Shown: piece by piece, positions 1 to 327 of the stretch | How the letters are laid out: each line of letters starts with the position of its first letter | Position numbering within the stretch: the first letter of the stretch is position 1 | From: Escherichia coli | GTDB lineage: Bacteria > Pseudomonadota > Gammaproteobacteria > Enterobacterales > Enterobacteriaceae | NCBI RefSeq assembly: GCF_003334765.1 | Contig: NZ_QOWT01000141.1 | DNA: 327 bases | Strand: one strand, 5' to 3' | Position numbers and translations under genes: made by a program | Notes under the pieces: model-generated | What the model saw: the letters and a program-made list of their open reading frames with translations, nothing else | Told to the model about the DNA's origin: nothing | Database searches by the model: none

Positions 1-327
1 TCCAGCTCCCTGAGTGATTGCCATGCGCCGCTGGTAGAACACATTCGCCAGGGCGTGGTTACCCGCATTTATACCTCTGGCCTGCGCGGTCCACTGGCGG
101 AAGAAATCTCCCGTGGTCTGCTGGCGGAACCGGTGCAAATCCACTCTCACGGCGGACGTGTGCATCTGGTACAGAGCGGCGAACTGAATATCGATGTGGC
201 TTTCCTCGGCGTCCCGTCCTGTGATGAATTCGGTAATGCCAACGGCTACTCCGGTAAAGCCTGCTGCGGCTCCCTCGGCTATGCAATGGTTGATGCCGAC
301 AACGCAAAACAGGTCGTGATGCTTACC
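1..327 (+). CDS. citF: Citrate lyase alpha subunit (citrate CoA-transferase), internal fragment; partial at both 5' and 3' ends, codon phase 0 at position 1
   Basis: Seen in sequence: frame 1 is open across all 109 codons with no stop, while the other two + frames contain stops (TGA 12-14 and TGA 222-224 in frame 3; TGA 11-13 and TAG 35-37 in frame 2). Codon usage is strongly biased toward enterobacterial preferred codons: Leu CTG in 8 of 11, Arg only CGC/CGT, Gly mostly GGC/GGT. The translation contains the segments HSHGGR and VAFLGVPSCDEFGNANGYSGKACCGSLGY, which I recall from the E. coli CitF protein, in the N-terminal third. The identification is from memory, not a database search. Sub-family assignment within the CitF/MdcA-type CoA-transferase family (citrate lyase versus malonate decarboxylase alpha subunit) would need an alignment to confirm. 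Confidence 0.8.

Follow-up and report, generated by a model that had tools for sequence, protein, structure and literature searches.

A stretch of Escherichia coli DNA 327 nucleotides long, here called the window, raises the question of what two short glycine-rich peptides and a pair of adjacent cysteines contribute to the enzyme that carries them. The first-pass annotation, made from the sequence, had placed HSHGGR at positions 142 to 159, FGNANGYSGKACCGSLGY at positions 229 to 282 and the Cys-Cys dipeptide at positions 262 to 267, and these positions are exact to the base. It had also assigned the gene to a CitF-type enzyme with the CoA-transferase fold, described the two stretches as conserved-looking and suggested a role for them in substrate or CoA/acyl-carrier binding.

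The window and the citF locus

Frame +1 is open across the full 327 nt; each of the other five is interrupted or offers no more than short open reading frames. The translation of frame +1 is SSSLSDCHAPLVEHIRQGVVTRIYTSGLRGPLAEEISRGLLAEPVQIHSHGGRVHLVQSGELNIDVAFLGVPSCDEFGNANGYSGKACCGSLGYAMVDADNAKQVVMLT. It is 100% identical to the annotated citF of E. coli SK1144, in which it covers CitF residues 97 to 205, with residue 97 encoded by the first codon. Together with the Pfam match and the homologues of known structure (see below), the open frame and this identity place the whole window (positions 1 to 327, plus strand, as for all features below) inside citF. The complete coding sequence spans L001:4713-6245 and encodes a protein of 510 amino acids. 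The gene order at this locus is dpiB-dpiA / citC-citD-citE-citF-citX-citG-citT, so that citF is flanked by its citrate lyase partner genes, citD (acyl carrier protein; ACP), citE (beta subunit), citC (ligase), citX and citG. The open reading frames in other frames were rejected as real genes and are by-products of frame +1 coding under strong purifying selection. An Rfam scan of both strands of the window found no family match.

Of 5426 complete E. coli genomes, 5422 carry a copy of the window at 95% identity or better. The matching places number 5467, which leaves approximately 45 genomes with a second citF-like copy, and two of the 5467 matches are on plasmids. Therefore, the window is an unremarkable section from within the known E. 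coli citF gene for the citrate lyase alpha subunit. Its activity is presumably that of a citrate:acetyl-ACP transferase, by orthology to the characterized Klebsiella and E. coli enzyme. The gene, family, fold and operon are all textbook, and the finding is already known, in agreement with the first-pass annotation, which had called it not novel.

Family, fold and relatives of CitF

Only the CitF family (PF04223) matched the window in Pfam (E = 4e-61). Full-length CitF (510 residues) scored 815.3 bits against TIGR01584, above the curated equivalog cutoff of 501.45 bits, and the window fragment alone scored 175.8 bits over model positions 78 to 186. Both results uphold the gene assignment. Two homologous CitF crystal structures have been available since 2004 to 2006, and the window matched both: 1XR4, from Salmonella (E = 9e-51), and 2HJ0, from Streptococcus mutans and with citrate (E = 3.5e-34). 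Relative to E. coli CitF, residue numbers are higher by 2 in the S. mutans protein and lower by 1 in 1XR4. An AlphaFold2 model of CitF, with 36 relatives as input, had a mean pLDDT of 92.6. Foldseek aligned it to 1XR4 and 2HJ0 with TM scores of 0.90 to 0.91, which identifies the two-domain CoA-transferase fold. The next ranks were taken by MdcA, followed by 4-hydroxybutyrate CoA-transferases (4HB-CoAT), AarC and SCOT. Three relatives are far from the typical length. Two have the CitF part at the N terminus of a much longer protein (P0020, 943 aa, and P0035, 927 aa), and in P0030 (716 aa) it occupies residues 253 to 715, which suggests that all three are fusions with another subunit or domain.

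MdcA, the alpha subunit of malonate decarboxylase (PF16957; PDB 5VIT, 5VJ1 and 6MPR), is a family II ACP transferase. It resembles CitF in its two-domain fold, in its family II chemistry through a mixed anhydride and in having no catalytic Glu. In MdcA, the reaction has been described as proceeding with no covalent enzyme intermediate and no acidic active-site residue (PMC5534430). However, MdcA and CitF are only approximately 20% identical, and their relationship is detectable only profile to profile: a phmmer search of the PDB with CitF reached neither MdcA nor class I enzymes and a family profile was required, whereas hhalign aligned the CitF and MdcA profiles with 97.4% probability over 357 columns. 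The window is not from an MdcA, because its Pfam scan returned CitF only and the gene is in a cit, not mdc, operon context.

For the MdcA comparison, we used five full-length sequences from plasmid and chromid records, with Pseudomonas aeruginosa numbering set by alignment to the PDB. A word-indexed search with an MdcA fragment of 71 aa returned only broken fragments. The AlphaFold2 model built from the five sequences had a mean pLDDT of 51 (54 to 75 in local blocks and below 50 in the C-domain), and its N-domain secondary structure alone was used. Two of the PLSDB "plasmid" records encountered are of chromosome size, CP125156.1 from Klebsiella pneumoniae (L002; 5.37 Mb) and NZ_CP064203.1 from Acinetobacter baumannii (3.97 Mb), and are probably chromosomes misclassified as plasmids. 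The mdcA coding sequence (1749-3404) of the Klebsiella record overlaps that of triphosphoribosyl-dephospho-CoA synthase (3307-4245) by approximately 98 nt (L002:3307-3404), which is probably a start-codon annotation artifact.

The class I CoA-transferases are homologous to CitF in their alpha subunits or N-domains (AtoD [1K6D], SCOT and YdiF; hhalign probability of 93% and E = 3e-7 for AtoD). They have a catalytic Glu (in the SENG sequence of AtoA) and form a covalent glutamyl-CoA intermediate, whereas the CitF family has no conserved acid there. No acidic residue is conserved in at least 75% of 36 full-length relatives within CitF residues 225 to 324, the region in which a counterpart of the class I catalytic Glu would be expected, and this is consistent with a family II mechanism. 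The counterpart of AtoA Glu46 would be I298 (hhalign, low confidence) or G305/G306 (strand register), and neither is acidic; the hhalign match of CitF to AtoA reached a probability of only 45% and cannot be relied on for the register at the Glu. A search for this residue with a C-domain subprofile (CitF 262 to 345) matched none of the class I chains. Class I enzymes combine an invariant catalytic Glu with a GxGGxxD oxyanion loop in the C-domain or beta subunit. CitF has a loop of this kind in its C-domain but lacks the Glu, and it is thus not a class I enzyme. The lack of Glu at the class I SENG position is a mark of family II in the sense of Heider (2001), and the sequence comparisons are consistent with CitF belonging to this ACP-dependent family within the CoA-transferase fold.

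The two glycine-rich motifs and the cysteine pair

To judge conservation, 1.84 billion representatives of clusters at 50% identity were searched with HMMER, which yielded 1710 CitF relatives. The alignment had 82 members: 81 window-covering relatives from the best 150 of the 1710, plus E. coli CitF. The aligned relatives share 29 to 60% identity. All conservation values below refer to these 82 representatives from the best 150. The two stretches are indeed glycine rich, with 7 Gly among 24 motif residues compared with 8.2% in the whole protein (post hoc binomial P = 0.0025). The first-pass annotation had proposed that poor conservation in a family alignment would speak against the motifs. The Gly, His and Arg positions are well conserved, and so the motifs stand, although the label conserved-looking suits only some of their residues. 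It fits S/T145, H146 to R149, G174, N175, G178, G181, G186, G189 and Y190 but not H144, F173, Y179, S180, K182 or C184.

Motif 1, HSHGGR (CitF 144 to 149; positions 142 to 159), follows the family pattern (R/H/Q)-(S/T)-H-G-G-R. Among the 82 representatives, position 144 (His in E. coli) is Arg in 63%, and position 145 is Ser or Thr in 94%. H146 is conserved in 90%, G147 in 91%, G148 in 83% and R149 in 94%. SHGGR ranks third for conservation among the 462 five-residue windows of CitF. In the AlphaFold2 model, DSSP assigned a beta-strand to V141-Q142-I143 (positions 133 to 141), followed by coil at 144 and 145, a helix at 146 to 155, a strand at 162 to 170, a loop at 171 to 188, a helix at 189 to 197 and a strand at 200 to 208. 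Motif 1 is therefore a loop that runs into the N terminus of the helix at 146 to 155.

The MdcA active site is the interface at which the C-terminal strand ends of the two domains face each other (PMC5534430), and by analogy with that crystal structure, the C-terminal end of strand 141 to 143 would point toward the interdomain cleft of CitF. The MdcA N-domain residues that adjoin malonate are Tyr134 and Asn59, and the oxyanion hole proposed for the second half-reaction consists of the Tyr134 side chain and the Gly381 NH (PMC5534430). The hhalign alignment puts Tyr134 under CitF S145. Secondary structure puts it one residue on, at H146, because both proteins have a strand-then-helix element at this point (I-H-T-Y in MdcA and I-H-S-H in CitF; in Klebsiella numbering, the MdcA model has strand 125 to 129, a His-Thr coil and a helix starting at Tyr132). 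In class I enzymes, a conserved Gln follows the "VPQ" strand. This residue (SCOT Gln99, equivalent to AtoD Gln100) was aligned to H144 by hhalign and to H144 or an adjacent residue by an hmmsearch extension, no more than 2 residues from His146. SCOT Gln99 is among the residues around bound CoA (PMC12817287). The methods are thus 1 to 2 residues apart in their register at CitF 144 to 146 (H144 from AtoD, S145 from hhalign with MdcA and H146 from secondary structure), but three independent comparisons put the ligand-facing residue of a homologue in this short segment. Therefore, motif 1 probably lines the CitF active site, as judged by homology.

From the sequence register and the model, His146 (positions 148 to 150), the first residue of the helix, appears to hold the position of MdcA Tyr134. 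Arg149 (positions 157 to 159), one turn into the helix, is a candidate ligand for a citrate carboxylate. MdcA has Tyr-Ile-Glu-Leu-Tyr where CitF has His-Gly-Gly-Arg-Val, and because it lacks an equivalent of G-G-R, such a role for Arg149 is without precedent in a solved complex. A literature search found no paper on the ligand site of 2HJ0 or 1XR4 and no cryo-EM structure of the citrate lyase complex. An hmmsearch extension also paired SHGGR with "TFGGR" of Bacillus subtilis SCOT-A, but we rejected this pairing as spurious. TFGGR lies inside an insertion of approximately 45 residues that is specific to class I enzymes, separates their Gln helix from the "DLALI" strand and is absent from CitF and MdcA, and the pairing conflicts with both the hhalign alignment to AtoD and the order of secondary structure elements.

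Motif 2, FGNANGYSGKACCGSLGY (CitF 173 to 190), lies within the long loop 171 to 188 and runs into helix 189 to 197. It is preceded by the beta-strand V162-C170 plus D171 (positions 184 to 225), a "DVAF(I/L)xAxxxD" strand that is common to class I CoA-transferases and MdcA and aligns with SCOT-A, with a butyrate-acetoacetate CoA-transferase subunit, with MdcA and with AtoD. Conservation within motif 2 is a mosaic. Among the 82 representatives from the best 150, G174 is 100% conserved and, of all CitF columns, only it and three others are invariant. N175 (87%), G178 (93%), G181 (89%), G186 (99%), L188 (74%), G189 (84%) and Y190 (80%) are also conserved, whereas F173, Y179, S180 and K182 are variable. 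As one block, motif 2 ranks 81st of 449 windows of equal length. The resulting family signature is D-x-x-G-N-x-x-G-x-x-G-x-x-x-(C/F)-G-x-(L/M)-G-(Y/F)-x-x-x-D-A.

Two parts of motif 2 have recognizable counterparts. G174-N175 (positions 232 to 237) forms a "D-x-x-G-N" turn, which profile alignments equate with AtoD G163-N164 and MdcA G161-N162. The turn recurs across the superfamily as RCDTLGN in AtoD (SCDEFGN in CitF), KADTMGN in SCOT-A and ADREGN in MdcA (CDEFGN in CitF). The second part, G186-S-L-G189-Y-A-M-V-D194 (positions 268 to 294), a glycine-rich helix N-cap, emerged when hhalign was used to compare the CitF N-domain with its own C-domain. This comparison detected an internal duplication (E = 3e-5, 180 columns) that pairs CGSLGY..D194 with GASGGH.D399. 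The C-domain loop concerned, G392..G395-G396..D399, aligned with GMGGAMD of AtoA and GFGGAP of MdcA, and a C-domain loop of this GxGG type is an oxyanion loop (PMC4876117). The alignments of the G-N turn and the pairing in the duplication thus describe motif 2 as a hairpin turn plus an N-domain twin of the oxyanion loop. The residues equivalent to motif 2 are not listed as ligand contacting in MdcA or SCOT, and in MdcA the acyl carrier protein docks without involvement of the N-domain, which argues against direct contact of motif 2 with ligand or carrier. By these sequence comparisons, its role is probably structural or second shell. The suggestion of substrate or CoA/acyl-carrier binding therefore divides between the motifs: homology favors a substrate or thioester role for motif 1, but motif 2 has no such counterpart among the reported ligand contacts.

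Codons 262 to 264 and 265 to 267 encode Cys184 and Cys185. The first-pass annotation had emphasized this pair, and here the alignment pointed the other way. The Cys-Cys dipeptide occurs in 3 of the 82 representatives (best 150 of 1710). Position 184 is not conserved and is Ala in 48%, and where E. coli CitF has Ala-Cys-Cys, 1XR4 has Ser-Arg-Cys and 2HJ0 has Thr-Thr-Cys. The SHGGR, GNANG and CGSLGY segments are the same in both solved homologues as in E. coli. C184 is a lineage-specific substitution for Ala, as read from the alignment. Position 185 is Cys in 58 of the 82 representatives and Phe in 20, and hhalign aligned it with AtoD Phe174, the Phe of the "ARNFNP" motif. From this alternation and alignment, C185 is probably a hydrophobic residue buried in the fold and not a reactive thiol, and from these comparisons the pair appears to have no family-wide role. 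The relatives thus split into a Cys185 type and a Phe185 type; the latter tends to have "GP(S/N)AFG" and is without the long N-terminal extension.

Variation within E. coli is slight. Four divergent alleles differ from the window by 6 to 14 nt but by one amino acid change only, S180T. The window allele has Ser at position 180 (positions 250 to 252), which is a variable position in the family, and all four of the other alleles sampled, including that of WP_000192245.1, have Thr. The segment as a whole is thus under strong purifying selection, which does not single out the Cys pair.

Alternative readings and a proposed mechanism

Taken as a whole, the likely explanation is that the window encodes part of CitF, with motif 1 at the active site, motif 2 mainly structural or second shell and a Cys pair that has no family-wide role. 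The most serious challenge concerns motif 2. Both motifs, G186 to G189 included, could bind ligand directly, with the N-domain cap serving as a second anion hole for one of citrate's extra carboxylates. That would explain why CitF has kept the cap glycine rich when MdcA and class I enzymes have not: G186 (99%) and G189 (84%; 82 representatives, best 150 of 1710) face "TEDTP" in MdcA and "RNFNP" in AtoD. More fully, MdcA has "TEDTPAL" in place of "CCGSLGY," and after the G-N turn its loop has 4 residues fewer. The segment is also the pseudosymmetric twin of the true oxyanion loop, and in 2HJ0 citrate is reported to occupy the interface between the domains, at a shallower depth than malonate in MdcA (PMC5534430). 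However, the equivalent loop residues do not appear among the ligand contacts of MdcA or SCOT, and we consider direct binding by the cap unlikely. Even so, G186 is nearly invariant in CitF, more so than a purely structural role requires, whereas MdcA and the class I enzymes do not conserve it, and this leaves room for a citrate contact specific to CitF.

The cysteines invite a different idea, that C184-C185 is a redox or metal site, such as a strained vicinal disulfide that acts as an oxygen-sensitive off-switch for the E. coli enzyme. In its favor, citrate lyase serves the anaerobic fermentation of citrate, the pair adjoins the nearly invariant G186, and it is kept in all four divergent E. 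coli alleles. However, this retention is no more than the near-total amino acid conservation of the whole window. The rarity of Cys-Cys (3 of 82), the prevalence of Ala at 184 (48%) and the presence of Phe at 185 in 24% (best 150 of 1710), the Arg and Thr at position 184 of the crystallized homologues and the alignment of position 185 with a core Phe of AtoD make a switch very improbable. We give even less credence to the idea that the glycine-rich stretches owe their composition to chance and that selection plays no part in them. The segments were chosen post hoc by eye, half of the motif 2 positions are variable and motif 2 ranks only 81st of 449, but Gly, His and Arg columns that are 83 to 100% conserved among representatives sharing 29 to 60% identity, the rank of SHGGR (3 of 462) and the invariance of G174 (all for the 82 from the best 150) refute it.

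With motif 1 at the active site and motif 2 mainly structural or second shell, a mechanism can be proposed. CitF would swap the acetyl group on the prosthetic-group thiol of CitD for a citryl group via a mixed anhydride and would form no covalent intermediate with the enzyme. The glycines of motif 1 would permit the chain to turn tightly and leave backbone NH groups exposed at the N terminus of the helix. There, His146 and the C-domain GxGG loop (G395/G396) may stabilize the oxyanion as the ACP thiolate attacks the citryl-acetyl anhydride, which would give His146 the part of MdcA Tyr134, a proposed oxyanion-hole residue. Arg149, together with the helix N terminus, may bind a citrate carboxylate. 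The motif 2 cap, G186..G189..D194, would be the N-domain's own, degenerate version of the oxyanion loop in the C-domain and would hold the neighboring active-site loop in place, in a role that is mainly structural or second shell, with C185 sitting in the hydrophobic core as either Cys or Phe.

Because the gene, family, fold and operon are textbook, the analysis matters little for them, and the Cys-Cys pair can be deprioritized. Its one useful by-product is a residue-level hypothesis, since the literature searched contained no published active-site dissection of CitF. We put the chances at about even that His146 and Arg149 of SHGGR are a catalytic signature of the family II citrate transferases. 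By analogy with Tyr134 of MdcA, these two residues would be the obvious first targets for mutagenesis in CitF.
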